NCBI RefSeq assembly: GCF_037042905.1
Contig: NC_087258.1
Coordinates: forward strand, 806,001-870,000
Direction of reading: 5' to 3'
Length of the DNA stretch: 64,000 nucleotides
From: Lytechinus pictus
Lineage: Eukaryota
Part shown: positions 9,108-57,619 of the stretch, in pieces
How the letters are laid out: each line of letters opens with the position of its first letter
How positions within the stretch are numbered: position 1 is the first letter of the stretch
Notes under the pieces: generated by a model
Databases searched by the model: none
Seen by the model: only the letters and a program-made list of their open reading frames with translations
What the model was told of the DNA's origin: nothing
Made by a program: the position numbers and the translations under genes

Positions 9108-10374
9108 TTAAGGAAAAATTGGAATAAAGAAAATTTCTTATCATAAAATACATAAGAACAAGTGGGGATAAGACATCATCTGTTTTCTCATTAATTATTC
9201 ATGAAGACATGCCCACAACTGTTTCACGGGAATAATGCAAATCTTTAAAATGCTATAACTTTGTTATTCCTTGTCCGAATTTGATTTAAAAAATTCAGTG
9301 TTTTGTTTGTCTGATTTTTCTTACTCTCTTCAAGTCATATTATTTTCAGCCTTCAGTACCCCTTTACATCCCCGAAGTCTTTTCATTCCCATACCTCCAA
9401 GCACACACCATGTCACATAACGTTCAGCATACCCAACCATACACAAAACACGCACACCCCCACACTCACGCGCCTGTACATGTACCTCTTGAAGCTTGTG
9501 GAAACTTGCACGGGATTTTCAGGGGGAAAAAAGCAGAATGCCAAGCCCTAACCAAGATAGAGATTTCAATTAAATAAAATTTTATTTATTTGCTTAACCA
9601 TCAAATTAAACAAAACAATACAAATTGACGACAAACTTTTATACAAAATTCCAATCATGGTAAGGTGACCCCGGGGAGAGCAAAGCTTTGTAAAACTCGG
9701 CCACCAAATAACAAAAATATACAATTATTGACAATATAGAATGCAAAGGATATCAATAACTATCCCCTTATTTTCTTTCATTATTTTTACAAAATGTTTT
9801 TCATAAATCACTTAGTTATAAACATAGGCCCTATACTGGAAAATGAAATTCGAAAAGCAAACTTTAATCTGATGGGTGTATTAATATTTCTGTAGATAAA
9901 TCATTTCTAATCATACAGAATTTCAATATCTACAAATAGTTGACAATGCAATAGCAATGATATTAATATGAGTTAATCAAAACTACGATCAACGAACATG
10001 TCAAGATTAAAATCAATATGCTGTACAAAAATAAATTTGGTTGTCTGTGATTTGTGTATTCCCTCACCTCATTCATAAGTAATTTAAGCCGAAATATCCA
10101 CTGACGTGACCTTACGCTAAAGTAAACAATGCACGGGTGGTGGCCATTTATTTACACCCTTTGTACAGGAAATGTTTCTGAACATTTTCTAAAAGTTCGA
10201 TAGGGCTATTTTATATAGCCTGAAAGCTTTTAGTTCTTTTCTTGGAATTCCATCAACTTATTTTTCCCGTAATAATCATCAAAGGAAATCATCTAGGTTG
10301 CATTTTAATAATAATGACATTTATATAAACATGTATATATGTAGCCTATCCAGAAATAATTTATTCGGAGGCGT

Positions 10375-38495: not shown

Positions 38496-38591
38496 GACCT
38501 TCAAAATGTAGCTTCATCCCATCATCCCGACCACCCCCAGCCCCTTCTCGCTACGGATATAAACCACTTTATTGAGTGTTATGTAACGTAA

Positions 38592-38870
38592 AGGTCAAGT
38601 CCACCCCGAAAAAATGTTGATCTGAATAGATAAATCAAACTAGCATAACGCTGAAAATTTCATTGAAATCGGATGTAAAATAAGAAATTTATGACATTCT
38701 AAAGTTTCGCTTATTTTTCACAAAACAGTGATATGCACGATTCAGTGACATGCAAATGAGAGAGTCGATGATGTCCTTCACTCACTTTTTATTTAGTTTT
38801 TTATTGTTTGAATTATACAATATTTCATTTTTAACATATTTGACAATAAGGACCAACTTGATTGAACCAT
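38592..38870. mobile_element. Left half of the Kolobok/T2-like MITE interrupted by the Polinton
   Basis: AGGTCAAGTCCACCCC start, co-linear with 23187-23460 up to GACAATAAGGACCAACTTGATTGAACCAT. Confidence 0.85.
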
Positions 38871-39401
38871 AGAGAAAGAGGAAGTCCAAGTAAGTGCACA
38901 ATGGGCAAATTAGCATAACAATGGAATATGACGTAATAGTTAATTTGCATAACAATGGAGGGTATGAATGGCAAGATGACATCACACGATGAATATTCAT
39001 GAGTAGAACAAAAGAAGGGTATCGTGGATAAACAAAGGGAACAATGGGAGACCTCCTAGTCCAAGTAGGTGCACAATAGAGGTTTTAATGAATATGCATG
39101 AGCAGTCGAAAATCAAAGTAAGTGCACAATAGAGGGTCTCATGAATATGCATGAGCGGTCGAAAATCAAAGTAAGTGCACAATAGAGGGTCTAATGAATA
39201 TGCATGCGACAGGGTTGGTGACATGTCCAGGGTATGTTTCCTAGCAACAAGATAAACAAAAACCCAGCAACAAGGTAAACAAAATTGATTGGATGTATTT
39301 TTAACCCATTTCTATTGTTTGAAGGTTAAAATTAGAAACGGGGACGGATGAAACAATAAGAAAACTTGAATAGTAGCCTGAGAACGGAAAAACATAGCAA
39401 C
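38871..39401 (+). repeat. Left terminal inverted repeat (531 bp)
   Basis: Starts AGAGAAAGAGGAAGTCCAAG and is the reverse complement of 54635-55271. Contains about 2.6 copies of a 53-bp unit (GTGCAC at 39069, 39122, 39175). Confidence 0.95.
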
Positions 39402-39736
39402 AACTTAAAAATATGTAAAAGTTGCCCCTATTCTTACATTACTGGTACCTACATAGTCCAATAGATAAGAAAGTCTGGTTATGAACTGTATCCTTTCATG
39501 CTTGCAGCAAACAGTACTTCAAGAGAGGGGTCGATGATGTTGAGATGACTCTGTATTGACCAAAGAGATTATTTCCGCCCATCAATATTTTTGTATTCGG
39601 AGTTCACTCTGTATTGATCGAATAGATTAGTTCCCTCCATTCATACATGGGCGAAGGGAAATGACCGTAACCAATCTTCTCTTACATGTATAACATGTAT
39701 TTCAATCATTGCAATGTAAGTTGTTTGATATTTGTC

Positions 39737-39948
39737 AAGGGGGTCCAGTGCCTAGTAACAAGGGCTGTGTATTGACGATGGTTCAGTCGAGAAGCTGTTT
39801 GTTAGTTGCCAAGGGGGTCAACTGCCTAGTAACAGGGGCTATATATTGTCGAGGCATTACTCGAGATAGTCACATTCTTCAGGATAACTGTAGAGACAAG
39901 TGAGCTCCATCTATCGTATCAAGCCGTATCTACTTTTTGACACTTGCA
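39737..39948 (+). promoter_or_regulatory. Putative pPolB promoter and 5' non-coding exon
   Basis: Two 30-bp direct repeats (39737-39766, 39811-39840) directly followed by TATATATT (39840-39847). Donor GCA|GTAAGT at 39949 pairs with acceptor CTATTTCAG at 40184, 6 nt before ACC-ATG-G. Confidence 0.45.
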
Positions 39949-40190
39949 GTAAGTAGGAAATTTACTTTTCTATCTTAAATTACCGATTACTATTTGAAAC
40001 AAACTATTTAGAGTCGATTTATTATATGACACTGTTTTAAATATTCTATGCATAACATGATTTAACCCGAGAAGATGGAATTCTGTAAATGGATGTTACT
40101 TGTATCGATATGTTATTCATAAATGTTTAGGCCATGTCATCTGCATTTCTAAATTCTAAAACAAAATATATATGTCTATTTCAGAAGACC

Positions 40191-43100
40191 ATGGCTAGTC
40201 AGTGGACATCTCAGGATGAACATCAATATATTCAAGCTAGGCAAGTACTTGCCAGCTTGGAGGAGCGACGCAAACGACACCAGGCAAGGAGGGCCAATGA
40301 AAGGGCGGAATTGCTAGATGCAAGACGCGGAATTTCATCCGTTCGGTCCTCGCCTTCTTTGACCACGGAGGAGTATCCCGTTATCCCTGAAACTCCCGAT
40401 GACGAGGAGGAATATCCTGTCATTCCTGAAACCCCTTCTGAAATGGTAAGTTTATCATCTTTTAATATTTGAGTCAGTGTATATAGGAACAGAAAAAGAT
40501 AAAGCTTGAACAATAAACACAAGTGTTGATGTAACCAGTCTGACTTGTATGTTGTTATTTTTTCTTTACTTCTACGTTACAGATGGTGTCTGAAAGCCCT
40601 ACAAGGGATGAAGAGGAACGCATGGAATCCGAAATAGATCCCTCAGATTCTGAAATGGTACGTCCCTATCCTTGCTATTGTATACCCGTTTTTTTAAACT
40701 ATTTTGGGAAAAAAATATTTTAAAAATGTATGCAATAGATATGTAAGCTTTATCATTATAATCTAATAGCGTTTTATTCTTTTTTCATTTATACAATTTA
40801 GATTTTGCCAGATAGTAGTCGGGATCTGTTTGACTCTCAGAAAAGCAGCGCTCTCGATTCGAATACTCTCGAAAGTGAAAACAGCAAAGCCCCTGAATCG
40901 GATAACGTGGCCTCCGAAGAAGTAAGTAATTTCAATCTTTAAATATGACGTTACCTAATGAAGCAATGCTGGAGAATATCAAATGACTTAAAATAAGAGT
41001 ATCTAATATGCTTACTCTAATTCCACTTTCTTCTTTTTTTTGTGTGTGTATGCATATCCACAGGTAAACATGGAACATTTTTACGATGTTGTGGAGGAGC
41101 AAGAAAGAGATGCACCCCGCTTCGGAGGACGCGTGACGGATTTTAACATCGTCGTGAGGCCGTTGCATCGGCTTGTTGAGGAGATGGGCTCCCTCGAAGT
41201 TATAGGTAGATTATTTTCTAGCATTATTTCACGTCTAACCGAGGGTTTCTTGAACGGTGATCTTGTAGGTTTCATTCTGTCAGGTTCCAATTTACGTCAG
41301 GATGTAGGCATTCCTCTGACTCGATATGATCAACTATCAGTCGATCGAATTTTAGCTTTGTTGGAGCAAATTTTACAATCCAACGAAGATTTTAACATCT
41401 CGGAAGGATTCAAAATACGTTTAGTTCATATTCGTATGCCGCAAGGAGGTAAGGGATCGGAAAATATGATTCCCCTTGACAAATTCATTCGCAAAAAGGG
41501 TAGATTTATCCAAATTACAAACAAAGATGAGCTTTGCCTAGGTAGAGCACTGGTAGTAGCCATGGCACATGCTCATAAAGAGGAGGATCCTGCTAATTTT
41601 CATCAAATCACTCACCCTAAAAAATACACGACCCAATTTGATGCGGCAAAACAACTCTTTATAGACTCTAACGTACCGGAGGGTGTTTGTGGAATCCCAG
41701 AAATAGAAAAATTTCAAAATATCCTGACAGAGCGAGGGTACCAGATTGCCGTCTATGTCAATGGTGGAGCCCACGGCAGGATATATGCCGGACCACCCAA
41801 TAGGCATTTTCTTTCTTTATTCTATCACAACAATCACTTCGATGTCATCACTAAGATGCCAGCATTTCTTCGCAAATCATATTTCTGTAATACCTGTCTA
41901 AAGGGATACGATATGAAGGCCAAGCATAAGTGCAAAGATACATGCAGTGCCTGTAAGAGTGAGACAAATTGTGTATTGATTAAAAGAACAATGTGTGAAC
42001 GATGTGGGCGTGTGTTCAAAAGTCAAGAATGTTTCGACAACCATCTTAAACAGGTAAGTGGTAATAAGAGTGTATGTCGGTTATTCTTCAAATGTAAACA
42101 GTGCAATGTAATGTTAGATAGCACCCGCGGCAGTGACAAGACCCATGATTGTAGGTTCGGGTATTGTGAACGATGTCGTACTACAGTATCAAAGGAGGGT
42201 CATCAATGCTTTATGATTCCTCTGCCCAAGAAAAAGAAGAACAAAGCAAAAAATCAGGAAGAGAGGAAGAAAGGAGACGATACCCAAAAGTTTATTTTCT
42301 ACGACTTTGAATGTCGTCAAGATGACAAAGTCGATGAAAATGATCACGGTTCAGTCTTTAAACATGTACCCAATCTTTGTGTAGCAATAAGAGTGTGCGG
42401 GCAGTGTTTTGACAAACAAGATGCATGCCCTGATTGTGGGGTACGTGAACATGTTTTTAGGGGGAAAGACACGTTGGACAAGTTTGGGGAATGGTTATTT
42501 GGCATAGAGGAAGATCACAGGGGGGTCATTGCCATTGCTCACAATGCTCGATCCTACGATTCACAATTCATTCAGGAGTATTGTCTAAAGTCGGGGGTGG
42601 TACCTCAAGTCATCATGAGTGGTGCTAAAATTCTATCACTCACTTTAAATGATGTAAAATGTATAGACTCACTTAGTTTTCTTGCCATGCCATTGTCTTC
42701 TTTTCCTTCAACCTTTCAACTGAAGGAATTGAAAAAAGGGTTCTTTCCTCACTTTTTCAATACCCTCGAAAACCAAGATCATGACGGACCGACCTTGCCA
42801 CCTAAAAAATATTACGATCCAGATGGGATGTCAACAGAAAAACGCGACGAGTTTGATGTTTGGTATGCGCACCATCAAAACGACAATTTTAACCTTCAAA
42901 GAGAATTACTAGAGTATTGTCGTTCTGATGTCCAAATTCTGATGGAAGGTTGCATGGCTTTCAGACGTCTCTTTATGAGCGTCACGGATAACATCGACCC
43001 CTTCCATAACATAACGATTGCCTCAGCCTGCAATACTGTATTTCGGACGCAATTTTTGAAGCGAAATTCCATAGGTCTCATCCCTGTCCAAGGATACAGA

Positions 43101-44897
43101 CATAAAGATCGACACTCAATCATTGCCTTGAAATGGCTCGAATGGGTTAGTCATAACGAGGGAATTCAAATAGAGCATGCGCGTAACGGTGGTGAACATC
43201 GAATCGGCAACTACAAAGTGGATGGTTACGATTCAGCAACGCGGACTTGTTATGAATTTTTAGGGGATATTTGGCATGGGTGTCCACGCTGCTACAAAAG
43301 GCGTGATTTGCTTGTTCCTGGTTCCAGTACCACCGTTCAGGAGGTATACGACCAGACAATGTATAGAATAAATGCATTGAAGAAACAGGGATATCGCGTC
43401 ATCACGATGTGGGAGTGTGACTTTGCAAAATTAAGACGCGAAAACAAGACGCTACAGACGTTTTTGGAAAAACTACAGTTTCGGGATCCTCTCAATCCTC
43501 GGCATGCTTTTTACGGAGGGAGGACAAACGCGGTGAAATTGAGTCATAGAATTCAGGGTAATGAGAGAATCAAATATGTAGATGTTTGTAGTCTTTATCC
43601 TTGGGTTTGCAAGTACGGTAAATATCCCCTGGGTCATCCCGACATTATCACAAAGGATTTCGAGGATATTCAGCGCTATTTTGGATTGGTGAAATGTAAA
43701 GTCTACCCACCTCGACAACTATTTCACCCTGTTCTCCCATACAGGAATGAGGAGAATAAGCTTCTCTTTCCTTTGTGTCGCACATGCGCCAACGAAAAGC
43801 AAACTTCAAAATGTACGCATAGCGACGAGGAAAGGGCCCTTGAATCTACGTGGGTTACGGAGGAAGTAAAGAAGGCAATAGAATTGGGGTACAAGGTTGT
43901 AGAACTGTTCGAAGTGTGGCATTATCCTCACTTTGACCAATACAATCCTCGAACCCAGGAAGGAGGACTCTTCAGGGATTACATAGATCTGTTTTTGAAA
44001 GTCAAACAGGAATCAAGCGGATGGCCCTCCGAATGTCATTCCCATGACGACGAGGTGTCCGCCGATATACAAAAAAAGCGCGCAAATTATGTGAGACAAT
44101 ATCATGAAAGAGAAGGTGTGCTCTTAGACCCTTTAAAAATCAAAGCCAATAAAGGACTTAGGGCTGTGAGCAAGATTTGTCTTAACAGCTTTTGGGGCAA
44201 GTTTGGGCAGCGGAATAATCTTCCAAAGACAGTCTATACGGTGGAACCTGAAGAATTCTTCTCACTGGTGTCGGACCCCAAATTGATCATTAAATATGTC
44301 GACTTCCCTACTTCGTATATGGCGCACGTGCAATATGTTGAGGAGGATGACTTTTTAGAAGTCCTCCCCAACACAAATGTGGTAGTGGCTGCCTTCACCA
44401 CGTGTTGGGCTCGTCTGAAGCTCTATTCGTACCTCGAAGAGCTTCAGAAGAATGTGCTGTATTTTGATACAGATTCTATCATATACCTCAAGAATGATGA
44501 AGTAGAAGATGTCCCCACTGGGAATTTCTTGGGTGATATGACGGATGAATTAGAAAAAGATTTTGGGGTGGGTAGTTATATTACGGAACTTCAGGCCTTG
44601 GGACCAAAAAACTACAGCTACCAGGTTTTCTCAACCAAGCATGGAAAAGAAATGCCCGGAGCTTGCAAAGTACGTGGTATCACGCTAAATTATAGAAATG
44701 CAAAGCTGGTCAATTTCGACACACTCAACGAGCTCGTGCATGGTGAACGCACTCACACCACCGTTACAAATGCGCATAGAATCGCGAGGATGCGTACCCA
44801 CAATATTGTATCCCGCGTGGAAAATAAAATCCATCGTATGGTATATGATAAGAGGGTACGTCTATCCGATTTTAACACTGTTCCATATGGGTATTAA
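40191..44897 (+). CDS. polB: Protein-primed family B DNA polymerase (pPolB), spliced, about 1427 aa, with vOTU-like protease, Zn fingers, 3'-5' exonuclease and a Vsr-like insertion
   Basis: Motifs FYDFEC (ExoI), AHNARSYD (ExoII), YCRSDV (ExoIII), YVDVCSLYP (A), KICLNSFWGKFGQ (B), YFDTDS (C). Exons 40191-40445, 40583-40657, 40802-40921 and 41064-44897 are joined by phase-0 GT-AG introns. The identity is secure, while the upstream exons are predicted. Confidence 0.95.
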
Positions 44898-45732
44898 GAT
44901 ACATATGTTGTATTTCTACCATTGATACTCTTTACCTTCTAACATTCTATATTTGCATTGTATCTCACCTCCAAATTTTCCTATGTTATATTTAATTCAC
45001 GCGCTACAAAGAATACTTTATAAATCAAATATTTTTATGCCAAATTTTGTGTCATATTATTGCAAGCACTCGGTGCTACCTGATGATTGATGTAGTGTAT
45101 AAACGATAATATTTCAGTGTATGATAATTGCTCTTTGTTTACTTAGTTATGTAAAGGATTTCAGAATGGTGCAATATATATATATACTAAGAAAATTCTT
45201 GCCATTTAATTTGTTCGTACTTCTGCGAGTGTGTGTGTGTGTTTGCATGTTTAGAACGAGAGAGAGAGAGGGTTTTTCAATCGTATCCCTTATTCGCCTT
45301 CGGTTAGACGTGAACTATTGTAGGGAAAATAATCCACCACCCTCAATTTGAACGACGATGTATATGTATATTGTTATATGTAATCAAGATATATATTTTT
45401 TATATCCTGTGCTTATACATTATATATTTGACTTTTCAAAATGTCTGAAAATAAATACGAAAACAAATCACATTCATTGTTATCGATCGTCTCTTTTTAT
45501 TGTAATGTGTGCATAAAAAGGAGTGTGTATGACACGATAAGCGAGAGAGCATGAGGGAGGTCTTTTCGCCGATGTTTGATAAGCAATAAGTATGTTATAG
45601 GTAAATGCTATAAAACAAAAATAAAAAAAAATAAAAAGTACGAGATGTATAAAAGAACCGCAAAAAATCAGAGAGACTGAATGTACATGTATAAAGGAGA
45701 GTGATTCTGACAAGTTGGAGGCATTTGGTGGG

Positions 45733-46371
45733 ATGGACGTTCGCCTGAAACATCCATTTACAGCTCTCATAGCAGGACCGACGGGGTGCGGTAAAACTCA
45801 ATTTGTGAGGAAACTCCTCAAACATCATGAAAAATTGGTGGATAAACCTTTTGATAAAGTCATTTGGTGTTATGGGGAATATCAGGTGGGTTATGCTGAT
45901 ATGGCGAGGGATATGCCATTCATTGAATTTCAGGAAGGTATTCCCTCGGATTTGGAAGGGATATTTGACCGCAGGAACTCTAATCTAATCGTTCTGGATG
46001 ATTTAATGTCCCAGGCAAATCAGGATCAAAGGGTGTCGCACCTTTTCACTAAAGGTAGTCATCATCGCAACCTTTCCGTTATTTTAATAAGCCAGAACCT
46101 ATTTCATCAGGGAAAAGAAAGTAGAACCATCAGTCTCAATGCCCACTACATGATCTTGTTCAAAAATCCACGCGACTCTTCTCAGATTGTCCACTTGGCA
46201 AAACAAATTTACCCGCAAAATGGAAAATTTCTGCAAGAAGCCTATAAAGATGCAACGGGTCGACCTCATGGCTATCTCCTCGTAGACCTCAAACCAGACA
46301 CGGATGAAAAATTACGGTTAAGAAGTAATATTTTCCCTGGAGAAAGAAATGTGGTGTATGTCATGAAATAA
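45733..46371 (+). CDS. A32/FtsK-like DNA packaging ATPase
   Basis: Walker A GPTGCGKT, Walker B LIVLDD, and GSHHRNLSVILISQNLF. TATAAA boxes at 45648 and 45690. Confidence 0.95.
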   Translation: MDVRLKHPFTALIAGPTGCGKTQFVRKLLKHHEKLVDKPFDKVIWCYGEYQVGYADMARDMPFIEFQEGIPSDLEGIFDRRNSNLIVLDDLMSQANQDQRVSHLFTKGSHHRNLSVILISQNLFHQGKESRTISLNAHYMILFKNPRDSSQIVHLAKQIYPQNGKFLQEAYKDATGRPHGYLLVDLKPDTDEKLRLRSNIFPGERNVVYVMK

Positions 46372-46464
46372 CTGTGTTTGCCCTATAAAGAGGTTGGGCA
46401 AAATGGAATGGTCATCAGTTGACATATAAATACATTTGCGAAAGCAACAACAGACTCATTCGGC

Positions 46465-46785
46465 ATGTCTCGCCGTGTAAAGAGCAACATTCCATACCTG
46501 CGCGTCTTGGCTAGGGGAACCCCGGCACAAAGAAAAGGTGTACTGCAAGGTGCTAAAAAGGATTTGATTGAAACAATTTGTGAATGCGCACTTAATATCC
46601 TTCACGGCACTGTTCCTTTGTCTGTTGTGGAAAAAAATAAACTTCGTCAGCATAAGCACAAGTTGAGAAGCCTTTGTAATAAAAAGATCTCTCTTCAAAA
46701 AAAGAAAAAGAAGCTGGTAAACCAGAGAGGTGGATTTTTACCATTTTTGATTGCCCCAATCCTGGCTAAAATATTCAGATCGTAG
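46465..46785 (+). CDS. Small basic Polinton virion/core protein with an adenovirus pX-like C-terminus
   Basis: ICECALNILHGTVPL block, Lys run, then QRGG|FLPFLIAPILAKIF (protease-site-like motif plus amphipathic helix). Lies in the structural gene block. Confidence 0.8.
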   Translation: MSRRVKSNIPYLRVLARGTPAQRKGVLQGAKKDLIETICECALNILHGTVPLSVVEKNKLRQHKHKLRSLCNKKISLQKKKKKLVNQRGGFLPFLIAPILAKIFRS

Positions 46786-46805
46786 AAAAAAGGATAGCGA
46801 CCACC

Positions 46806-47594
46806 ATGCAGTACGCCAAAAAAATGGTGCTGGTACCCCACGAAACCGTTCAGCATGTTAACGCTTCGCACGAGCATGGAGTAGCTCCTACCTTTAAAGG
46901 TCTTGCCGGATTAGACGAGCAAATGCAGACTATTTTACGCAGGCAGGACATTCCAGAGGATGAAAGAGTGAAACTCTATCAGCAAGCCCTCATGGGGTAC
47001 ATCAACCTACATCACAAACTCAATGAACCGATAGCCCTACAGGTGGAGAATGTACCGGGGAATAATCTTCCTGCGATCACGTCTGCAAAGTCAAACGAAA
47101 AGGCAACGCTTCATACCGCTCCTTCCACCTCCCCCTGGATGCAGCGTGTCAAAGAGAGTGTCCCTAAAACACTGGTCCAGAAAGCAGGGCAAATCATGCA
47201 TCTCCTTCAATCTGCACCTGATCATCGCATAGCTATCAATGACAAGGGAGAAATTTTGTTGGATGGCAAGGCGCTAGAAGGAACGCACATTGTCGACCTA
47301 GTCAATGATATGTTGAGAAAGAGGAAGAGTTTTTCTCCAAAAGGATGGCAAGAATTTGCACGGGTGATGGCTACTCTGCATCCCCCGAGGGAGCTCGTGG
47401 GAAACCAAGATAGATGGAACTTCATGCAACGACAAATTTCTACCGAATCCTTACTTCCCCGAACTACAGAATTTCAAGATCACAAACCAGACAACTTGAA
47501 TACCGTGGAGGTGTTTGCTAGAGCGGATCACCTTCCTGCAACGAAAAGAGGTCGACCCAAGAGACAGTCCTCCCCAGACTGGATCCAGTATTGA
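46806..47594 (+). CDS. Conserved Polinton protein (PZ-like), function unknown
   Basis: Blocks AKKMVLVP, LDEQMQTIL...KLYQQAL and NDKGEI..DG...GTHIVDLV...PKGWQEF, recalled from animal Mavericks. Kozak-like CCACCATG. Confidence 0.75.
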   Translation: MQYAKKMVLVPHETVQHVNASHEHGVAPTFKGLAGLDEQMQTILRRQDIPEDERVKLYQQALMGYINLHHKLNEPIALQVENVPGNNLPAITSAKSNEKATLHTAPSTSPWMQRVKESVPKTLVQKAGQIMHLLQSAPDHRIAINDKGEILLDGKALEGTHIVDLVNDMLRKRKSFSPKGWQEFARVMATLHPPRELVGNQDRWNFMQRQISTESLLPRTTEFQDHKPDNLNTVEVFARADHLPATKRGRPKRQSSPDWIQY

Positions 47595-47748
47595 TAAACA
47601 TCGGTATTCAACTTTCTTATTCATTTCATGACACTTCTGTTCTCGAGCAACATGGGATGTTGGCCTCCGTCACTGAGGCTACAGTTGGAACGTGTCCGAT
47701 GTGCCTTGGCTTGCTGCAAAGGAAACATCAATATACACGAATCATCCG

Positions 47749-48819
47749 ATGGAGGACATCCTAAAAAAGGTGTATTACGATCCGGAAAACCCTGCCGGTT
47801 TTGGTGGTGTAGATGCTGTTTACCACGAGCTAAGGAAACAAAACAAAAATATAAAGAGGTCGGACATAAAGGAATGGTTGACAGAACAATCGACTTACAC
47901 ACTTCACAAACCCCTACGGAGAAGGTTTAAACGAAACAGAGTCATCGTCTATGGCATAGATCATCAGTGGCAAGTGGACCTGGTTGATATGCAGGCTCTC
48001 TCGCGACAAAATAAAGGATTCAAATATCTCCTGACCTGTATTGACATATTCTCCAAATATGCTTGGGTTTTACCCCTCAAAGACAAGAAAGCGGCGACCC
48101 TTGTTGAGGGCTTTCAGAAAATCTTGAAAGAAGGCCGAAAGCCATACAAACTACAATCTGATAAAGGAGGGGAATTTATCAACAAACCCTTTCAGCGCAT
48201 GTTGAAAGAAGAAGACATCGTATTCTTTACTACTCAGAACGAAACAAAAGCTAGCGTAGTAGAAAGATTCAACCGAACCCTCAAAGAGAAGATGTTCAAG
48301 TACTTCACCAGTCACAACACACGCAAATACACGAATGTACTGCAAAAGTTTGTTTCGGCTTACAATCGTCGCAAGCACTCGAGTATCGGCCGCCCACCCT
48401 CGGAGGTTAAGGCAACGAATGAGAAGGATGTATGGATGACGTTGTACGCTGACCTACCTAAAAAGGGTTCCAAGGAGGCAAAGTTTCGAATGGGAGATCA
48501 CGTGAGGCTTTCCATAGCAACGCAGGTTTTCAGGAAAGGGTATCTTCCCAAGTGGACGGAAGAGATATTCTCCATCAGCCGACTTATTGGAAGGACACCC
48601 ATCGTCTACAAAGTCAAGGACGCCGGTGGAGAAGAAATTGATGGCACCTTCTACGAACAGGAATTACAAAAAGTCGTCCCTCCGCGAGATGATTTTTACA
48701 AAATAGAAAAAATTCTGCATACTAGGAAGCGAGGAGGTGTGAAAGAATATTTCGTCAAATGGTGGGGCTATCCCGACAAGTTCAACAGTTACGTTACCGA
48801 CCTTAAAACTATTCCATAA
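47749..48819 (+). CDS. int: Retroviral-like (rve) DDE integrase with C-terminal chromodomain
   Basis: WQVDLVD, LQSDKGGEF and VVERFNRTLK form the catalytic triad. YKIEKIL...EYFVKWWGYPDKFNSYV is the chromodomain. Consistent with the 6-bp TSD. Confidence 0.96.
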   Translation: MEDILKKVYYDPENPAGFGGVDAVYHELRKQNKNIKRSDIKEWLTEQSTYTLHKPLRRRFKRNRVIVYGIDHQWQVDLVDMQALSRQNKGFKYLLTCIDIFSKYAWVLPLKDKKAATLVEGFQKILKEGRKPYKLQSDKGGEFINKPFQRMLKEEDIVFFTTQNETKASVVERFNRTLKEKMFKYFTSHNTRKYTNVLQKFVSAYNRRKHSSIGRPPSEVKATNEKDVWMTLYADLPKKGSKEAKFRMGDHVRLSIATQVFRKGYLPKWTEEIFSISRLIGRTPIVYKVKDAGGEEIDGTFYEQELQKVVPPRDDFYKIEKILHTRKRGGVKEYFVKWWGYPDKFNSYVTDLKTIP

Positions 48820-48859
48820 AAGAGATCAACCGAAGGCAACGGGTGTTATTTCACTCACC

Positions 48860-49624
48860 ATGGCTAAGACAACAGCATCCTCGTTTTATGTGACTCTGCC
48901 TAGCAACAGTTCACTCGATGTATTCCCTAGGAATACCCTCTCTTCGTTCAAAGTGAGACTACCTCATACCGTCATACTCGAGGGAATCTGGGAAATGGCG
49001 ATGGTAGAGCTGCACTACCCGAACAGATGGTTTAATTATCATTCTTCCCACTTGAACTCCGGAATTCTATACTCAGGCGATGGTGGAATAAGCTGGGACG
49101 AACATCGCATCCCAAATGGTTACTATGACAACATCAAAGAGCTTCTGATCCTAATTGTCCCGACAGATTTACGTCGTACCATTGAGTTTACATTCAACGA
49201 TTATTCTAGCAAAGTGACCTTTGTCACGCGAGATCCCTTTTACAGGGTAAAAATGACGGGAGGGTTGGCTACCATGTTGGGTTTTGAGGATGGGTCTTCC
49301 ATGGCGGGGCCATTAGAAGCTCCATTACCAGTCGATATGATGTTGTTTCATGGATTATATGTGTATACAGACCTCATTGAACATCAGCTTGTGGGCGATA
49401 CAAGGGCCCCTCTCTTACGAGTTGTGACAGTAAAGGACAGACATGGCAAAGACGTAACTGTCAATTTCGAGGCCCCGCACTATCTACCTATGAACCAGAA
49501 GCTCTTCAATACGATCGAAGTCCATATAAAGGATGACATGGGTCGTAGTATTCCATTCCAGCGTGGGAGAGTCGTTGTTAAACTACATCTGAGGAAGAGA
49601 TCGCCTTCTTTGATTCACGGATAA
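48860..49624 (+). CDS. Minor capsid (penton, single jelly-roll) protein
   Basis: FYVTLPSNSS...NTLSSFKVRLP at the N-terminus and YVYTDLIE.QLVGD..APLLR...IPF..G.V.VKLHLRK at the C-terminus, typical of Polinton pentons. Confidence 0.88.
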   Translation: MAKTTASSFYVTLPSNSSLDVFPRNTLSSFKVRLPHTVILEGIWEMAMVELHYPNRWFNYHSSHLNSGILYSGDGGISWDEHRIPNGYYDNIKELLILIVPTDLRRTIEFTFNDYSSKVTFVTRDPFYRVKMTGGLATMLGFEDGSSMAGPLEAPLPVDMMLFHGLYVYTDLIEHQLVGDTRAPLLRVVTVKDRHGKDVTVNFEAPHYLPMNQKLFNTIEVHIKDDMGRSIPFQRGRVVVKLHLRKRSPSLIHG

Positions 49625-49652
49625 GAGTGTATTTTTACAAGAAAAATTAAAC

Positions 49653-50108
49653 ATGGCGAGCACTGGTTATCTCTCGCCTCAAGTCTACACAGATTATTAC
49701 ACTAGCCAAGTAGGGAATGGTGTACCTGTATTCTCCGGAGGAGTGATGCAACAAGGTTTTGGTATTGGAGGTTTACTAGCCAGAGGACTGCGGGCAGCTA
49801 TGCCCCTTTTGAGAAGAGGAACGCAAGCCGTGGTTAAAAAGCTTGCCTTTAGAAAAGGGGGCAATTCATTGGCTCAGAGAGCTGTCAATGCCGGAATCAA
49901 CTTTGCAGCTGGGGCTTTGTCAGATCATCTTGATAAAAAGATCGGTGTTAGGAGGGCTCCCAAAAGAAAACGCGCTACCCGTCGACGACAGGCAACTGTC
50001 AAGAAAAGGCGAGTTGGGTCTAATAAAAAGGGGAAACGTCCAAAAGCATCCAACAGTCGTCCTGGAGTCGCTGCGAAGGCAAGAGCTCGAGATATTTTTG
50101 ACGCCTGA
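49653..50108 (+). CDS. Small basic core / membrane-active virion protein
   Basis: YTDYYTSQVGNG...MQQGFGIGGLLARGLRAAMPLL followed by an Arg/Lys-rich tail and C-terminal DIF. Located between penton and MCP. Confidence 0.8.
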   Translation: MASTGYLSPQVYTDYYTSQVGNGVPVFSGGVMQQGFGIGGLLARGLRAAMPLLRRGTQAVVKKLAFRKGGNSLAQRAVNAGINFAAGALSDHLDKKIGVRRAPKRKRATRRRQATVKKRRVGSNKKGKRPKASNSRPGVAAKARARDIFDA

Positions 50109-50135
50109 GAATAATCGGGAGAAAATCAAAGTACA

Positions 50136-51470
50136 ATGGCCTTTGTCCATAACGATTCGTGCGAGTGTGTCAAATCAGAGTTGGACCTCTTCAGTATTCC
50201 ACCTACTCAAACCAGTATTGAACAAGGGCAATGGATAGAATACCACCCCCTGGCTCAATTTTCAGACGGAGGACCCATCGAGTTTCACATTTCTGGTTCA
50301 GGAAGCGAATACCTAGATCTCACTCAGACACAGGTCTATGTAAAAGCAAAAGTGGTCCATCAGGATGGTACCAATCTTGTGGACGGAGATCAAGTTGGAC
50401 CGGTAAATCTGTTTCTGCACTCCCTCTTCTCACAAGTGGATGTCAGTTTAAACGATCGAGTGATCACGCCTTCTACACCAACCTACCCCTACAGGGCTAT
50501 GATTGAATCATTGCTTCAATATGGGTCAGAAGCCAAGGAGACCCAGCTGACCTCGGCTCTCTTCTACAAAGATACCGCTGGCTGTATGGATAATCCCAAC
50601 CCTCTAGATAATACCGGAGATGCCAACCAAGGTTTGAAGAAGAGACACGGTTACATCAGATCATCCAACAGTTTTGAGATGACGGGGCCGCTTCACTGCG
50701 ATCTATTCTTTCAACCCAAACACCTATTAAATGGTGTAGATGTACGAGTTAAAATGATCAGAAGCAAGGAAGAATTCTCCCTCATGTCTGCAACACCCGA
50801 TGCTCCCTACAAAGTTGTCATTCAAGATTGCTCCCTCTTTGTTCGGAAGGTTAAAGTTTCCCCCTCTGTGATGATAGGGCATGCAAGAGCGCTGGAAAAG
50901 GGAACAGCTAAATATCCAGTCCGACGTGTGATGTGCAAGGTTCTCTCTGTCCCTCGTGGGGAAATGACGTTACAGCAGGACCATCTTTTCCTGGGACAGA
51001 TTCCACAGCGTCTCGTTGTGGGATGTGTAGATAACAATGCTTTCAGTGGCAGTTATGTTCACAATCCGTTCAACTTTCAACACTTTGACGTCAATTACAT
51101 GTCCCTCTACGTAGATGGAACACAAGTTCCATCCAAACCATTAACTCCTGATTACGGACGTATCGCTGGATCGGCTTCAATCAGAGCTTATCATACCCTC
51201 TTTTCAGGAACGGATAAAATGTTCAGGGATTCTGGAAACGATATCAGTAGGGAGGACTACGATCGTGGATACGCACTCTATGCCTTTGACCTCTCCCCTG
51301 ACTTATCATCGGGTCAGCATTTCAACTTGAAAAAGCAAGGAAATCTGCGCTTGGAGATACATTTCAGGAAGAATCTACCACAGGGAGTGAACATTGTTGT
51401 CTATGCAGAATTTGACAACATCCTAGAAATTGACCGAGCCCGCAACGTCCTGTTTGATTATTCTGTGTAA
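50136..51470 (+). CDS. Double jelly-roll major capsid protein
   Basis: 444 aa. ECVKSELDLF.IPPTQTSI, PIEF.ISG....YLDL, LHSLFSQVDV.LN, YPYRA.IE.LL, NPFNFQHF and LYAFDLSPD motifs of the Polinton MCP. Confidence 0.95.
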   Translation: MAFVHNDSCECVKSELDLFSIPPTQTSIEQGQWIEYHPLAQFSDGGPIEFHISGSGSEYLDLTQTQVYVKAKVVHQDGTNLVDGDQVGPVNLFLHSLFSQVDVSLNDRVITPSTPTYPYRAMIESLLQYGSEAKETQLTSALFYKDTAGCMDNPNPLDNTGDANQGLKKRHGYIRSSNSFEMTGPLHCDLFFQPKHLLNGVDVRVKMIRSKEEFSLMSATPDAPYKVVIQDCSLFVRKVKVSPSVMIGHARALEKGTAKYPVRRVMCKVLSVPRGEMTLQQDHLFLGQIPQRLVVGCVDNNAFSGSYVHNPFNFQHFDVNYMSLYVDGTQVPSKPLTPDYGRIAGSASIRAYHTLFSGTDKMFRDSGNDISREDYDRGYALYAFDLSPDLSSGQHFNLKKQGNLRLEIHFRKNLPQGVNIVVYAEFDNILEIDRARNVLFDYSV

Positions 51471-51472
51471 AT

Positions 51473-52000
51473 ATGTATGCTTCCGATATTGATCGCATCA
51501 TGAGGAATGATACAGCAGTGGGAGGAATCTACGAGGGCGTTTATCCCTCCGATCGATTGATCATGGAAGCAGTGCCCCGACCTTCAGCTTATGTTGTTAA
51601 CCTAGACCCAGCCCATAAACCTGGAAGCCATTGGATCGGTATATTCATGGATAGCTCTGGAAATTCAGATTATTTTGACTCTTATGGAATCCCCCCACCC
51701 CCTGGAAAAATTCGGAAATTCTTACGTCAACATACGGATGGTCGAACCGGATGGAACCGCTTCAAGCTTCAGGGAGACTATTCCACAGTCTGCGGACAGT
51801 ATGTGATATTCTTCTTAACCCAACGTGCCAGGGGTAGAAATATGGATTCTGTCATTCGCAAATTTTCTTTGGATACGGATTTGAACGATCATCTTATCCG
51901 AGATTTTGTCCGAACTAACTATGGTTATGATCAACCGGTACATCAAACACACTTTCTGGATGACCAACTATCAAAGGCTGTTTATCCTTTGTTTCTTTGA
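51473..52000 (+). CDS. Adenain-like (Ulp1/C5 family) cysteine maturation protease
   Basis: VNLDP..KPGSHW (His), YFDSYG (Asp), LQ...STVCGQY (Gln/Cys). Confidence 0.93.
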   Translation: MYASDIDRIMRNDTAVGGIYEGVYPSDRLIMEAVPRPSAYVVNLDPAHKPGSHWIGIFMDSSGNSDYFDSYGIPPPPGKIRKFLRQHTDGRTGWNRFKLQGDYSTVCGQYVIFFLTQRARGRNMDSVIRKFSLDTDLNDHLIRDFVRTNYGYDQPVHQTHFLDDQLSKAVYPLFL

Positions 52001-52053
52001 TTTGTCATACGTATATAACATGTAAATATTGTTGTTTTGCTGTGATGAAAAAA

Positions 52054-52549
52054 AATAAAAATAAAGATGTAAATAGTATTTTCTTTGCTTCCCATGTCTC
52101 CTTATTTTAGTCATCAAAGTGTCTCGTTCTCCGATTTAACGTATACATTGCATACACACAGCCATACTGATACAGCCCAACAAATATTTGCAAACCTTTC
52201 TCGTGTACAAGAAAAGTTTTACAACCTCTTTTTCTTTTAAGCAAAACTTTTTTTCTCTCTCCCCCTCTCTTCTTTTTTATTCTCTCTTACCTCTCTCTCC
52301 TTTCCTCTTTATCCCCCCACCCTCTCTTCATCTTTTTTCATTAGATAAATACAATCCACGCCTAAGAAGTAAGACAAAGACCTTGCTTTACACTTCAATA
52401 ATAACTTTATTACATGTATTTACTCTATTTACATGAATCTTTCAAATAGGCCATTCGCATTTCCATACGATTATCTTACAACATGAATGCATGATAGTCA
52501 AACACTTGCCATAAATATGATCTAGAGATTGAAGATTTTACAGTTTATT
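52054..52549. terminator. Convergent polyadenylation region between the structural block and the right-arm genes
   Basis: Tandem AATAAA on + (52054-52065) followed by a T-rich tract. AATAAA on - at 52549-52544, just past the stop of ORF 52555-53139. Confidence 0.5.
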
Positions 52550-52554
52550 TACAT

Positions 52555-53139
52555 CTAAAAATCAAGACGCTGAGGGGATATAGTATATTCTTCTTCCCCT
52601 TCCTCTTCCTCGGATGTTTCAGAATCATCGTCTAATTTATCGATATACATCTCACGAATATCATCATCAAATGAAGGGGATTCAAATTTCCTATCCTTAA
52701 CATTGTACAGATCTACAATATCCTGGTGCCTAACGCAATCAAAACCGGGGGTTTTCTCATACCATTGCTCATAGGTATTTAGGAAATAGTCCACATCATC
52801 AACATATTTGACAAGGAGTTCCCTTACAAGTGTATTCCACGTACCAGTTGGACAGAGAAAGACATCACTCTGATCTGTTACAATGTGGGCATAAAATACT
52901 TTCCATTCCTTTAACAGTTTTCCTTTATCAATTTTCCTGAATACCTTTACAACCCCTGGTTCAATAAGTTCAGAGATCGTTATATTGTTCCAGTGATAAG
53001 GCATTTTGTAGTTTAGACATGCGTGGTAGGACGATGGATAGTGATGGAGGCAACCGTCGCAATCTGCCTGGCTCGGTATCATCAAGCTGGAGATCTTTCG
53101 GAATAGCTCTACTACTACGAACCCCTCCAGTATCTTCAT
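52555..53139 (-). CDS. Polinton accessory protein with a CxGC-x4-PS-x2-HxC putative metal-binding motif and acidic tail
   Basis: 194-aa ORF containing QADCDGCLHHYPSSYHACL and DDDSETSEEEEGEEE. Splice acceptor TATTCCATTTTAG at 53157 with the frame open to the ATG. Confidence 0.7.
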   Translation of the reverse strand: MKILEGFVVVELFRKISSLMIPSQADCDGCLHHYPSSYHACLNYKMPYHWNNITISELIEPGVVKVFRKIDKGKLLKEWKVFYAHIVTDQSDVFLCPTGTWNTLVRELLVKYVDDVDYFLNTYEQWYEKTPGFDCVRHQDIVDLYNVKDRKFESPSFDDDIREMYIDKLDDDSETSEEEEGEEEYTISPQRLDF

Positions 53140-53266
53140 GAATCGCTTGCCATTTTCTAAAATGGAATAAATATAGAAAGAACATACGCATAGCTATGTG
53201 GGACATGTTACTATAAAGCAATATTGTACGACTACAATATCAAGGATGTGTATGATGGATCAGCGT

Positions 53267-54382
53267 CTAAGATTTATTGTTTTGTAACAGCTGAAATCTC
53301 TTCCTATCAATGGCTTTGTGGATGCCCGGTACGGCTGCTGCCAGGTTGAGCCAATTCTCCCTGGTTAGATTTATGCCCTTCCGTCCAGCCATCATGCGGG
53401 TCCCATGGTGACCAATATTATAGTACTCTCTCACGTTCACGTAGATCTCCTTGTTAAACGTTTTCACCACAGCAAAACGCTTACCCCCTAGAGGAACGGC
53501 GTGGACGTCTTCCGGGAATCCTTCAACTTTTCCGTCGTCATCGACTTTTTTCCTCGGGGCTTCTGAGATACTGGCTGGGATCTCTAGCTTCAGCTGCTTC
53601 CTTGCCTTCTTTGCTGCAGCGTGGTCTTTCTCCGCGATCTCAACGGACTGGAAGGTCAATGAAACGAAAATACAAAATTATGGATATAAAATATAAAAAC
53701 AATAATAGAAAAAATGAATGACCGACCACCCGATTAAACCAAGGTAGCAACTGAAACTCGTTTCCAAGTGAATTCTGTATAACAAAACTCAAATTTCATG
53801 AAACAGACTCTCTATCCTTAATGAACATGTCCGGTTAATATTTGTAATACATGCAGATTAAATATTAAACAATTATAATTTTTGCATGCATACTACCATC
53901 TGGTATATCAACATTATACGTACACCCTCATGGACATATGCATGAGTACAAATATAGTAAATACGACCTTTTTCACACAAACATCATGGCATTACACTTA
54001 CCGTGGATGCTTTCCTCTTATCCGGTGTGGAGACTGGCGTGGGTGTCCCTTCGGGGAAGCGGAAGATGTCTTTAGTGTGGTGGGCAGCTACTGGAGTTGG
54101 GGGTGGGTGCAGACCTGCTGGCATAGAAGGCAGTATAGGTCTCTGCTCCATAGATGGAGGGTGTTGAGACAATCTTGTCACCGTGCTACTGTCTTTGTCT
54201 GATTCCTCTTCTATTGCTGGGGACGGACTTTCCCACTGCGTAACACCCGTCGAAGTGTTAAAATAATATGCCTTGTTCTCTCGCGAACTAAACCCCACCT
54301 GCCATCCCTCTTGCAATTCTTTGGAGGCCAACTTGAGTTCGGCTTCGAATACGCTTCCACAGGCATTTGAAATATCCGTCAT
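53267..54382 (-). CDS. Spliced WW-domain + PC4-like ssDNA-binding fusion protein (about 253 aa)
   Basis: Exon 54382-54002 carries WW (LQEGWQVGFSSRENKAYYFNTSTGVTQWESP) and donor ACG|GTAAGT. Exon 53647-53267 has acceptor TGACCTTCCAG and PC4 (LGGKRFAVVKTFNKEIYVNVREYY...GRKGINLTRENWLNL). Phase 0, in frame. Confidence 0.85.
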
Positions 54383-54472
54383 GGTAGGGTATGATAGAAA
54401 CTGTAACAGAAATCTGGTGACAGCTGCGATACGTGCGGTTGTACAGGTGGTGTGTCGTAAAATGAGGAGAAT

Positions 54473-54612
54473 TTCAAATTTCCCGCTTATATGACTTACT
54501 TCGCGTTGCTACGCAGAGGATCACGTGTTTGACACGACCAATGGGATTGTAAGCATAAGCAACGTCATAAACATTTCCACCAATCGTGTGGAAGAAAACT
54601 GTGGAGCACGTG
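54473..54612 (-). promoter_or_regulatory. Putative promoter of the WW-PC4 gene: TATA + E2F/CDE-CHR, CCAAT and E-boxes
   Basis: Minus strand TATAA-GCGG-GAAA-TTTGAA (54491-54473). CACGTG at 54522 and 54607, CCAAT at 54538 and 54580. Confidence 0.5.
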
Positions 54613-54634
54613 CTTTGCTGTTTGACCAAACAAC

Positions 54635-55271
54635 GTTGCTATGTTTTCCCGTTCTTAAGCAACTATTCAAGTTTTCTTATTGTTTCATCCGTCCCCGTTT
54701 CTAATTTTAACCTTCAAACAATAGAAATGGGTTAAAAATACATCCAATCAATTTTGTTTACCTTGTTGCTGGGTTTTTGTTTATCTTGTTGCTAGGAAAC
54801 ATACCCTGGACATGTCACCAACCCTGTCGCATGCATATTTATTAGACCCTCTATTGTGCACTTACTTTGATTTTCGACCGCTCATGCGTATTCATGAGAC
54901 CCTCTATTGTGCACTTACTTTCATTTTCGACTGCTCATGCATATTCATTAGACCCTCTATTGTGCACTTACTTTCATTTTCGACCGCTCATGCATATTCA
55001 TGAGACCCTCTATTGTGCACTTACTTTGATTTTCGACTGCTCATGCATATTCATTAAAACCTCTATTGTGCACCTACTTGGACTAGGAGGTCTCCCATTG
55101 TTCCCTTTGTTTATCCACGATACCCTTCTTTTGTTCTACTCATGAATATTCATCGTGTGATGTCATCTTGCCATTCATATCCTCCATTGTTATGCAAATT
55201 AACTATTACGTCATATTCCATTGTTATGCTAATTTGCCCATTGTGCACTTACTTGGACTTCCTCTTTCTCT
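54635..55271 (-). repeat. Right terminal inverted repeat (637 bp)
   Basis: Reverse complement of the left TIR plus two extra 53-bp units (106 bp). Ends CTTGGACTTCCTCTTTCTCT. Confidence 0.95.
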
Positions 55272-55572
55272 AACCATAAAGTACTAAATGCTAATTGCAG
55301 AAGTTCAGGGAGGAATTAATCATTGATTCACTCGAAAATAAGAATATTTCATATAATAAAATACACAAGAAATATTGTGAGTGGATGCGTCATCAGTCTC
55401 ATTTGCATACCAACCAGGATGTGCATATAACTGTTTTGTGAAATTAAGCAGAAACTTTCAAATGTAGCTTTCTTATTCTTAAATCCGATTTTGATGAAAT
55501 TCTCAGTTTTAATCTTGTTGGATTTTTTCTCTTTTTATTCAAATCAACTTTTTGTTGGAGTGAACATGTCCT
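55272..55572. mobile_element. Right half of the interrupted Kolobok/T2-like MITE
   Basis: Resumes exactly where the left half stopped (compare 23455-23773) and ends ...TGTCCT-TTAA. Confidence 0.85.
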
Positions 55573-57619
55573 TTAATTTACAAATGTCAAGTGTGTTCGA
55601 AACCAACTATTGTAGGCCTACATGTACTACTCTACAACTAAGTAGACTGAATTTGGTTTTAGCAATAAATCAGTGCCATAACTTAATGACAGAACATATT
55701 TATCCGATTTTTGTATATTTCTTCTAAAAGAAGAGTTTCTTAAAGGCTAATCTTTCGAATTCAAATCATGAACAAAAATACAACATATAGGCCTATATCA
55801 CAGGGAATTTCATCAAAATGGGTTGTATAATAATGGATATGGCATTTTATAGACAAGCAAAGTTTCAGCAAAAGTGGTGAAAATCGGGAGCCGGTCCCGG
55901 GGAGCCAGTTAAGACCAACGCGATCTTTTTCATTAGCATTTAATTATACAAAATTTAGAATAATCAGGGATTTATATTAAAATGATATAAATTATGTGCC
56001 GGACATTGGTTTCTTACACATTTGCATACCAACACCGTTAAGCATCTGCTCATTTACACACAAGGGAGTTTCGTATTCTAAATACGCTATAGAAAATGTT
56101 AGAATGAGTTACTTTATAAGACAATGCCTTTAATTGGACAATAAACATTAAAATATGCCAACCCCAAACATATTTTGACCTAGGGGTATGTAAGCCGTAA
56201 ATCATGTTCCATCAACCAACCTGTTCAACCCTTCCTCCTTCCTAATAAACACAGCAACCTACATACAGCGTCCCAATACCATGGCAACGGGCATGGCGGG
56301 GTCATTGGCATGTACCAGTTACCGTGCGTCTACAAACCCCCACGGGTTAACGCAACGGCTCAGGCACGTTCCAAAGATTAGGAATTAAAGGATTTGTAAA
56401 TCCCTAGCTAGGGTATAGGATCGACAATAAATCGAGAGCAATCGTAGATCAACTGAATTCATCCTGATTTCGTCTGGAAATCCCCATGATAAAGAAAATA
56501 TAATTTTGTGTATGCTATTTTGCAAACATAACCAATTACCTGAATAATGTGTTTCATGAATTACGTCTAATATCTTATACTGTTATAGCACGATTAATTA
56601 AGCATGATCATCGTTTGGTAATTGGCCTATATACATCTACCTCTACAAGTAACCATTCTAAATCAATGTCTGGCTCGGAAAGAGGATGATAATATCCATG
56701 TAAATATGGTAGAATATCCCTGAAAATATGATAAAGTATAAAGCTTTCTTTACAAGCGTTCATCCCGGGACACATGCAGAGCAAAAATGCTAAACGTAAT
56801 AATAATTTCGCTTGCATCTAAAGGTTTATTGCAATATACATTAAAGCATGATAAATTCATATATAAATTGTCTTCACTGCAAATTTGATTAATAGACATC
56901 AAAATATACAGGAGCAGATCGAGATGTAGGTAAAATGAGCGAAACATTTTGAGGGGACAGAACATGGCGTACATGTATATGCATGGGGCAACATGAATAC
57001 TTCAAAGGTCATGTGGGAACAAACGTTTTGACCTTCTAAAATGAAATTCTGATTTTGTGATAGATTTTTCGATAACCCTTTTCTTACTTTGGTCTGGAAG
57101 ATTTTGGGAGCAAATGCCACCCCCCCCCCCCCCCCCAAAAAAAAAAAAAAAAATTAATAACAAACAATATCTTTACGGTAATTCACTGGAAGAAATACTT
57201 TAAATTCTTTAAAAAGTATAAATGAAGTAAAAAAAAAAATCATAGGGTTAATAAGTCATAAAAATGTTCATAAAAGTACTGCTGGAAATTCGGACATGAA
57301 AATGAGCCTTCTATCGTCCCGTATTCAAAGAAAGCAATAGGAAATCTCAAATTGTTTGCTCTAGAACGTCAAAAGTCAAACAAGGCACACATTTTAGGCA
57401 AAATGAATGGGGTAGCCACACCTATAGGAGACCTATTCCCGATAGCACCAAACGATTTCCTTTTTCCGAACTTTGAGGTATCGGAAAGAATGGGGTAGGT
57501 GTAGCTGGTGTGACTGCTTCGCCAGAGTTACAGCAGGGAGTAACTGCAACTCCCTGGTTACAGTAACCATGACCAAAATTCGACGGGGTTCATGCAAGGC
57601 ATCAACTGGACCATAACAG

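Follow-up and report, generated by a model that had tools for sequence, protein, structure and literature searches.

A spliced WW-PC4 fusion gene adjoining the terminal repeat of an intact Polinton in the sea urchin Lytechinus pictus

In a 64,000-nucleotide stretch of the Lytechinus pictus genome (contig NC_087258.1, positions 806,001 to 870,000; hereafter the window), an intact 16.4-kb Polinton was found to carry, adjoining its right terminal inverted repeat (TIR), a spliced gene for a 253-aa protein with a WW domain, a Pro-rich linker and a PC4 domain. Our preferred reading, held tentatively and rated a little below an even chance, is that this is an expressed Polinton gene combining PC4 with a WW domain likely taken from PCIF1, whose product docks on RNA polymerase II (Pol II) with a Ser5-phosphorylated C-terminal domain (pSer5-CTD), holds melted DNA and aids transcription of the element. 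The gene comprises the following features:

54002..54382, minus strand: coding exon 1, 127 codons (helix, WW domain, Pro-rich linker, basic end)
53648..54001, minus strand: phase-0 GT-AG intron, 354 nt (sequence, run contigs, RefSeq model, C8 copy)
53267..53647, minus strand: coding exon 2, 126 codons plus stop (basic cluster, then PC4 domain)
54224..54316, minus strand: WW domain, PCIF1-like (PF00397, E 8e-10; long loop 1, Ser at W+5, Leu at W-9)
53339..53494, minus strand: PC4/Sub1 domain (PF02229, E 2e-10; PDB alignment; Foldseek)

Exon 1 opens with the ATG at 54382. The initial annotation had joined two separately listed ORFs through this intron into a product of about 253 aa, and its coordinates, frames and splice sites were as claimed, with both Pfam matches exceeding the curated cut-off. 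The donor reads ACG/GTAAGT and the acceptor ...TTGACCTTCCAG/TCC, with a pyrimidine tract and CAG ahead of exon 2; the intron has a GC content of 31%, versus 50-51% in the exons, and 5-9 stops per frame. Of 96 GT/AG pairs able to join both ORFs in frame, a simple strength filter leaves two that share one donor, and the 53648-54001 intron is one of them. In NCBI nr, the spliced 253-aa product corresponds to XP_054752689.1, 'uncharacterized protein LOC129258441 [Lytechinus pictus]', which differs from the window exons in two residues; the gene is thus not 'hidden', as had been stated, since RefSeq already models it. No near-identical intronless DNA copy was found in the genome search.

Four runs (X1, X2, X15 and X18) were mapped on the element interior, X1 and X2 being RNA by guess only. 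The exact 53647-54002 joint (a skip of 354 with CT..AC ends on the plus strand), which the initial annotation had named as a check, is present in contigs of two of the four runs, X1 (study P1, depth 48) and X2 (study P2, depth 9.8). One X15 contig retains the intron, and the joint was not listed in X18, a set of raw reads with only 78 reads over 15 kb. The X1 and X2 contigs differ from the window in about 3% of letters (about 97% identity) and may derive from an allele or sibling copy of the window gene. Given this divergence and the presumed RNA nature of both runs, the transcript data represent expression of the WW-PC4 family, not of the exact window insertion.

The AATAAA noted over the last codons is indeed present within the coding end (53273-53278), but one X1 contig (52751-54572) that spans the WW-PC4 gene continues past it and ends inside the next ORF, so that this AATAAA need not be the polyadenylation signal in use. 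A further AATAAA lies at 52544-52549, just past the stop of that downstream ORF. Since the X1 contig enters the ORF and this second AATAAA follows its stop, a two-gene transcript is possible. The flanks of the gene contain:

52555..53139, minus strand: downstream ORF, 194 aa, frame open from 53193, with a CxGC-x4-PS-x2-H-x-C motif
54460..54546, minus strand: conserved upstream block, aligned with the C8 copy

The downstream Cys/His ORF matched no Pfam family and no fold (best Foldseek E 0.98, best Z 5.8), its structure model is weak (pLDDT 60), and the ESM Atlas returned only matches scoring 0.80 or less. It follows PC4 genes in the window, in C8, at C5:36.88M and C18:5.54M and in L090, is fused in P0032 as WW-PC4-PC4-Cys/His, and is joined to the WW-linker in the L. 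variegatus model P0012. A GTAAGC donor inside exon 2 (53484) could also be joined in phase to an acceptor before the downstream ORF (53157, minus strand), and RefSeq models such a splice in L. variegatus (XP_041478871.1, WW-linker-Cys/His without PC4). This joint was not listed in X1, X2, X15 or X18, and the C8 copy lacks the donor GT; from the sequence, in-frame alternative splicing into the downstream ORF is possible. An adintovirus map places a gene labelled 'MAEL' between hexon and MOSUB (parts of Starrett et al. 2021, PMC8502044), and equating the Cys/His ORF with it is a positional guess.

The element in which the gene resides is delimited and composed as follows:

38871..55271, no strand assigned: whole Polinton, 16,401 bp between AACCAT target-site duplications
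38865-38870 and 55272-55277: the 6-bp AACCAT target-site duplications
38871..39401, plus strand: left TIR, including 53-bp tandem units
54635..55271, minus strand: right TIR
41070..44897, plus strand: protein-primed DNA polymerase B ORF (PF03175), with spliced 5' exons from 40191
45733..52000, plus strand: core module

The two TIRs differ by 17 mismatches and an unequal number of 53-bp units. The core module encodes a packaging ATPase, a pX-like protein, a 262-aa ORF, an integrase-chromo protein, a putative minor capsid protein, a basic ORF, a putative major capsid protein and a putative protease, and all core ORFs are open. The polymerase (PF03175), integrase (PF00665) and packaging ATPase (PF04665) are all above the Pfam cut-off. 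The putative capsid and protease ORFs had no Pfam match; we take them to be such from sequence features and position, and their size and position fit and they are conserved in sister elements. Copies of a small, MITE-like inverted-repeat element are located at 8346-9112, 23181-23780, 38589-38738 and 55413-55578, including on both outer flanks of the Polinton.

The WW-PC4 gene is not the only spliced gene of the element. In the region upstream of polB (39915-41069, plus strand), where the first exon is probably non-coding, coding exons at 40191-40445, 40583-40657 and 40802-40921 join in phase 0 and read into the polB ORF in the same frame; they lengthen the protein by about 150 acidic residues, including two VIPETP repeats. 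Two of the leader joints are present in run contigs (X15 and X1), and a loose end in X1 matches the upstream exon; in the C8 element, a comparable first exon lacks the VIPETP repeats. No introns were seen in intact vertebrate elements (parts of Barreat and Katzourakis, PMC8097293), and the window Polinton departs from this intronless tendency in both its WW-PC4 gene and its polB leader.

Comparison with the Polinton on C8 provides the evidence for selection. In that element the polB, ATPase and 262-aa frames are split or shifted, while the WW and PC4 exons are intact and separated by a GT-AG intron of 163 nt at the same phase-0 position. The two introns are unalignable (305 of 500 shuffles score as high) and synonymous sites are saturated (pS 0.77-0.89), whereas WW has a dN of 0.37, PC4 one of 0.32 and the alignable segment of the linker one of 0.30 (overall range 0.30-0.50). 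The WW-PC4 gene is under purifying selection between these copies. Furthermore, about 90 nt upstream of the two genes align with a score of 68, against a shuffle maximum of 27 (0 of 500 shuffles as high), and a 19-nt pattern of this block has two genomic occurrences, one ahead of each intact WW-PC4 gene. The block contains, in order, CACGTG, a TATA-like element, GCGGGAAA-TTTGAA and an initiator-like TCATTT, and is likely the promoter of the gene. We take GCGGGAAA-TTTGAA to be E2F/CHR-like elements.

Three more genome copies (C5, C18 and C22) are broken by stops, shifts or deletions. The L. pictus protein P0004 (LOC129267365) is 89% identical to P0003, but its PC4 stops after about 190 residues; this sibling was not found in searches of assembly GCF_037042905.1. 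Adjoining the C8 element on the opposite strand is a second, differently related Polinton core with protease, capsid and integrase (L022-L024, G000:C8:34.66-34.68M). The proposal that the gene is a chance juxtaposition or a functionless passenger, to which the broken genome copies and P0004 would lend some colour, is largely refuted by the junction reads, the low dN at saturated pS, the conserved promoter and the dozens of single-ORF fusions described below, and hardly merits further weight.

A search for relatives of the fused protein uncovered a WW-PC4 family rather than a one-off fusion. The profile search returned 93 proteins, 28 of which carry both Pfam domains, mostly in a single ORF; our own profiles found WW and PC4 together in 39 proteins, some of them near-duplicates, and a full-library search gave exon-wise relatives as well as single-ORF fusions. 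Named members come from Lytechinus pictus, Amphiura filiformis, Asterias amurensis and Holothuria leucospilota, those of sea urchin and brittle star being called by Pfam and those of sea star (Asterias) and sea cucumber (Holothuria) by our own profiles; most other members are unnamed assembly gene calls. In one gene model, P0192 (a Holothuria leucospilota record), a Bcl-2 domain is joined to WW-PC4, which may reflect a merge of neighbouring Polinton genes. Among metagenomes, a scan gave 37 loci, of which three have WW plus PC4, all on contigs shorter than 5 kb, and most others are unrelated PC4s; one of the three contigs has the same Cys/His ORF directly downstream. IMG/VR viral contigs contained no relative of P0003 or of the family alignments, and the ESM Atlas no usable match for P0003. 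Polinton context was seen for the window and C8 fusions, the others being on short contigs or at unseen loci.

In a PC4 tree built by a quick method (90 PC4 domains, 72 columns), all 35 WW-bearing rows fall in one branch of 64 rows (SH-aLRT 96), outside which lie 11 cellular PC4s and several other Polinton PC4s. Because all WW-bearing rows are on this one branch, the simplest reading of the tree would be a single old fusion in an echinoderm Polinton lineage. Many of the WW-less rows within the branch are probably partial gene calls. A WW-less subclade (P0094, P0184 and kin) with a different N-terminus also sits inside the branch, and for this reason WW appears dispensable in some lineages. Across the genome there are 24 PF02229 matches, and 11 of the 14 other PC4 loci whose flanks were examined are within 10 kb of Polinton core genes, none of the 14 having a WW beside PC4; the PC4 gene of L092 is likewise beside core genes.

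The notion that PC4 genes occur in Polintons is thus borne out by these loci, and also by an adintovirus map, which labels a 'MOSUB' gene by an ITR (parts of Starrett et al. 2021, PMC8502044, Suppl. Fig. S2). MOSUB of a Branchiostoma lancelet adintovirus (A0A5H3CIS2, 203 aa, BFVD) gave a Foldseek match over 89 columns at 21% identity. Like the window gene, MOSUB is PC4/MoSub1-like and borders the right inverted repeat in an element of Polinton type; unlike it, MOSUB is a map label on which the main text is silent, and the part of the supplement covered has no 'WW domain' (PMC8502044). PC4 in Polintons is therefore already known, as a label.

The PC4 domain itself retains the DNA-contact residues of known PC4 proteins. 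Its fold matches MoSub1 and human PC4 (Foldseek, TM 0.72-0.88 on target). The PC4 homodimer contacts DNA through R70, R86, R100, K101, F77 and W89, the last being Tyr in many orthologues (parts of PMC4350104). Human R70, F77, R86, W89, R100 and K101 correspond to R184, F191, R200, Y203, R216 and K217 of the window protein, and in the fusions these are kept as R184 in 30 of 31, F/Y191 in 31 of 31, R200 in 30, Y203 in 28, K/R216 in 29 and K/R217 in 30. By analogy with the PC4 structures (PMC4350104), the WW-PC4 protein is predicted to be a homodimer that binds ssDNA. Cellular PC4/SUB1 proteins (human PC4, MoSub1, yeast Sub1) share this fold and these contact residues, but form a separate branch without WW, whereas WW-PC4 has the WW and Pro-rich linker as its N-terminus.

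The WW domain is of the long-loop type, and the resemblance to Pin1 and PCIF1 proposed in the initial annotation was confirmed, with PCIF1 as the best match when family profiles are used. The single window WW scored 27.1 bits against PCIF1 and 26.9 against Pin1, a near tie. A 31-member family profile gave 42.7 bits for PCIF1 and 34.7 for the best Pin1 chain, in a comparison limited to single-WW PDB chains; multi-WW chains outscore PCIF1 through summed domains. Among 21 host WW domains (a set without host Pin1), PCIF1 ranked first for four of five subgroup profiles and fifth for one; the host PCIF1 gene, identified by its downstream exons, is located elsewhere than the Polinton. PCIF1 (2jx8) was the top fold match, a weak one (E 0.054). 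As in PCIF1, all 31 fusions have L, I or V at W-9, where the model places a short helix, and the loop Ser at W+5 is kept in 30. WW-PC4 and PCIF1/CAPAM are alike in having an N-terminal WW with a helical lead-in, long loop and Ser at W+5, followed by a linker, but WW-PC4 has only 253 aa, has no helical or methyltransferase domain and has lost the basic residue after the Ser. The WW domains of Pin1/Ess1 and SWT1-like proteins share the long loop 1 with Ser but score below PCIF1 with family profiles, and WW-PC4 has no PPIase or PIN domain.

In a weak WW tree (47 columns, built without host Pin1, whose WW is split by an intron), PCIF1 nests among the fusions (83/73), the window subfamily joins a long-branch host WW-PIN gene (98/90), and one-clade tests with or without PCIF1 rejected neither arrangement (p-AU 0.29 and 0.25). 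This host gene on G000:C15 (L084:7325-7519, L086:3101-3322) carries a long-loop WW at its N-terminus and a PIN exon further downstream, is the second-best host match to the window WW subfamily and is, we presume, SWT1-like. CMTR1 was rejected as the source of host WW L076, which has no FtsJ match nearby and a PIN exon downstream. On these sequence comparisons, the WW was likely captured from host PCIF1, with SWT1 as the rival source.

Whether the domain still reads phosphate is a separate matter. The residue after the loop Ser is R in human PCIF1 and K in that of this host; in the fusions it is basic in one of 31 and A, S, L, E, T or D in the other 30 (Ser in the window), with Arg/Lys found one residue further on in the window subfamily. 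In Pin1, the basic residue right after the loop Ser is a phosphate contact. The PCIF1 WW specifically binds pSer5-CTD (parts of PMC10544176), and S54H is a WW mutant that abolishes the PCIF1 effect (parts of PMC12549845), S54 probably being the W+5 loop Ser. Phosphate reading by the WW-PC4 WW is likely but not assured, chiefly because the post-Ser residue is basic in only one fusion. The idea of a captured phospho-reader thus agrees with the long loop and the conserved Ser, but not with the adjacent residue.

The linker motifs pointed out earlier (TPTP..TPDKRK, RKQLKLE and PRKKV) are all present in the window protein, but are poorly shared: in the closest subfamily the full CDK site and PRKK each occur in one of seven exon-1 sequences and an RxL-type motif in four of seven exon-2 sequences, and the full CDK site is found in two of 34 fusions. 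A Pro-rich block, G-L-x-PPP-x-P-x-A-x-x-T-K-D-I/V (ending T/V-K-D-I/V), is in all seven exon-1 sequences of this one subfamily. Since basic clusters flank the exon junction on both sides, a bipartite NLS created by splicing is plausible; by eye, the basic linker has no visible match in the host PCIF1 exons.

In our preferred reading, a PC4 dimer would display two WW domains, permitting avid binding of the repeated CTD despite the basic residue missing from each WW. The two domains would dock on pSer5-CTD as the PCIF1 WW does, this ligand being proposed from PCIF1 biology, and so an ssDNA binder would be placed at newly opened transcription bubbles, where it would hold melted DNA. That the element's own transcription would benefit, and that the E2F/CHR-like promoter would give S/G2 timing, are guesses. 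Sub1/PC4 contacts Pol II and Spt5, according to the parts of the literature covered. A bolder version, which we consider rather doubtful, holds that a PCIF1-type CTD reader was captured once and long ago, and that the protein is a bivalent pSer5-CTD reader clamping melted DNA, switched on in S/G2 and working with the Cys/His protein. If true, this would be an undescribed class of viral transcription factor and the first candidate gene-regulation switch of animal Polintons.

The strongest alternative, to which we give about the same low weight as to that bolder version, is a replication SSB, in which the PC4 dimer coats the strand displaced by the protein-primed PolB, and CDK-phosphorylated S/T-P sites, on PolB or on proteins of host repair, allow the WW to bring the dimer in or set its timing. 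Adenovirus DBP and phi29 SSB coat displaced strands in this way. PC4 is near-universal in the Polinton families of this genome (11 of 14 loci, and L092), and WW-less PC4 genes beside core genes accord with a general part in replication more than with one at Pol II. Also in keeping with an SSB are the two VIPETP repeats in the spliced PolB leader, the presumably E2F/CHR-like promoter and the phage T5 PC4 homolog (PDB 4bg7), a viral PC4 that its entry title implicates in DNA replication, though it is prokaryotic, 18% identical to WW-PC4 and without WW. Against it, the PCIF1-type WW points to Pol II, and intact vertebrate Mavericks have eight core ORFs, with PC4 absent from the main text in the parts covered (PMC8097293). 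No IPETP-type motif stands upstream of polB in the C8 WW-PC4 element or in six other elements, and for want of such conservation we set aside the idea that the WW recognizes IPETP sites on the PolB encoded by the element itself.

Another, distinctly unlikely reading starts from the basic residue beside the loop Ser, which 30 of 31 fusions have lost: the WW would have drifted away from phosphate reading and would bind a Pro-rich peptide instead, be it in its own linker, in the Cys/His protein or in some host factor, leaving PC4 alone to act on ssDNA. The Pro-rich block and the fusions of the Cys/His ORF to WW-PC4-PC4 (P0032) and WW-linker (P0012) would suit such a change, but the block is confined to one subfamily, and very divergent lineages still have the loop Ser (30 of 31 fusions) and, for most rows, the long loop. 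Less probable still is a decoy that competes with host PCIF1 or Pin1 for pSer5-CTD, dampening cap m6Am or host defence transcription. The gene is transcribed, and endogenous PCIF1 bound less Pol II in human cells given a free PCIF1 WW domain (parts of PMC12549845), yet a decoy leaves the strict conservation of the PC4 DNA-binding surface unexplained.

In line with the initial annotation, no description of a WW-PC4 fusion came to light in the literature searched, with subscription journals and Repbase reports outside its scope; figures, supplements and subscription papers could hold one. The main texts of PMC11131425 and PMC11161782 do not mention PC4, a review of PC4-like proteins mentions neither fusion nor transposon in the parts covered (PMC7549692), and in searches for Polintons with PC4, PC4 appeared only as a table label in a LINE table. 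Automated pipelines already annotate WW and PC4 together and the parts themselves are known; the new points are the WW-PC4 family, PCIF1 as the likely source of its WW and its residence in Polintons.

To our knowledge, animal Polintons encode no RNA polymerase. WW-PC4 is a concrete, expressed and conserved candidate through which a predicted ssDNA binder would be coupled to the phosphorylation code of host Pol II, and it bears on gene activation in animal Polintons and on their handling of displaced single strands; Lytechinus pictus embryos are suited to knock-down and ChIP. Moreover, spliced genes can occur in an intact Polinton, contrary to the intronless elements described from vertebrates, and because both the WW-PC4 gene and the polB leader are spliced, annotation based on ORFs alone misses accessory proteins of these elements.
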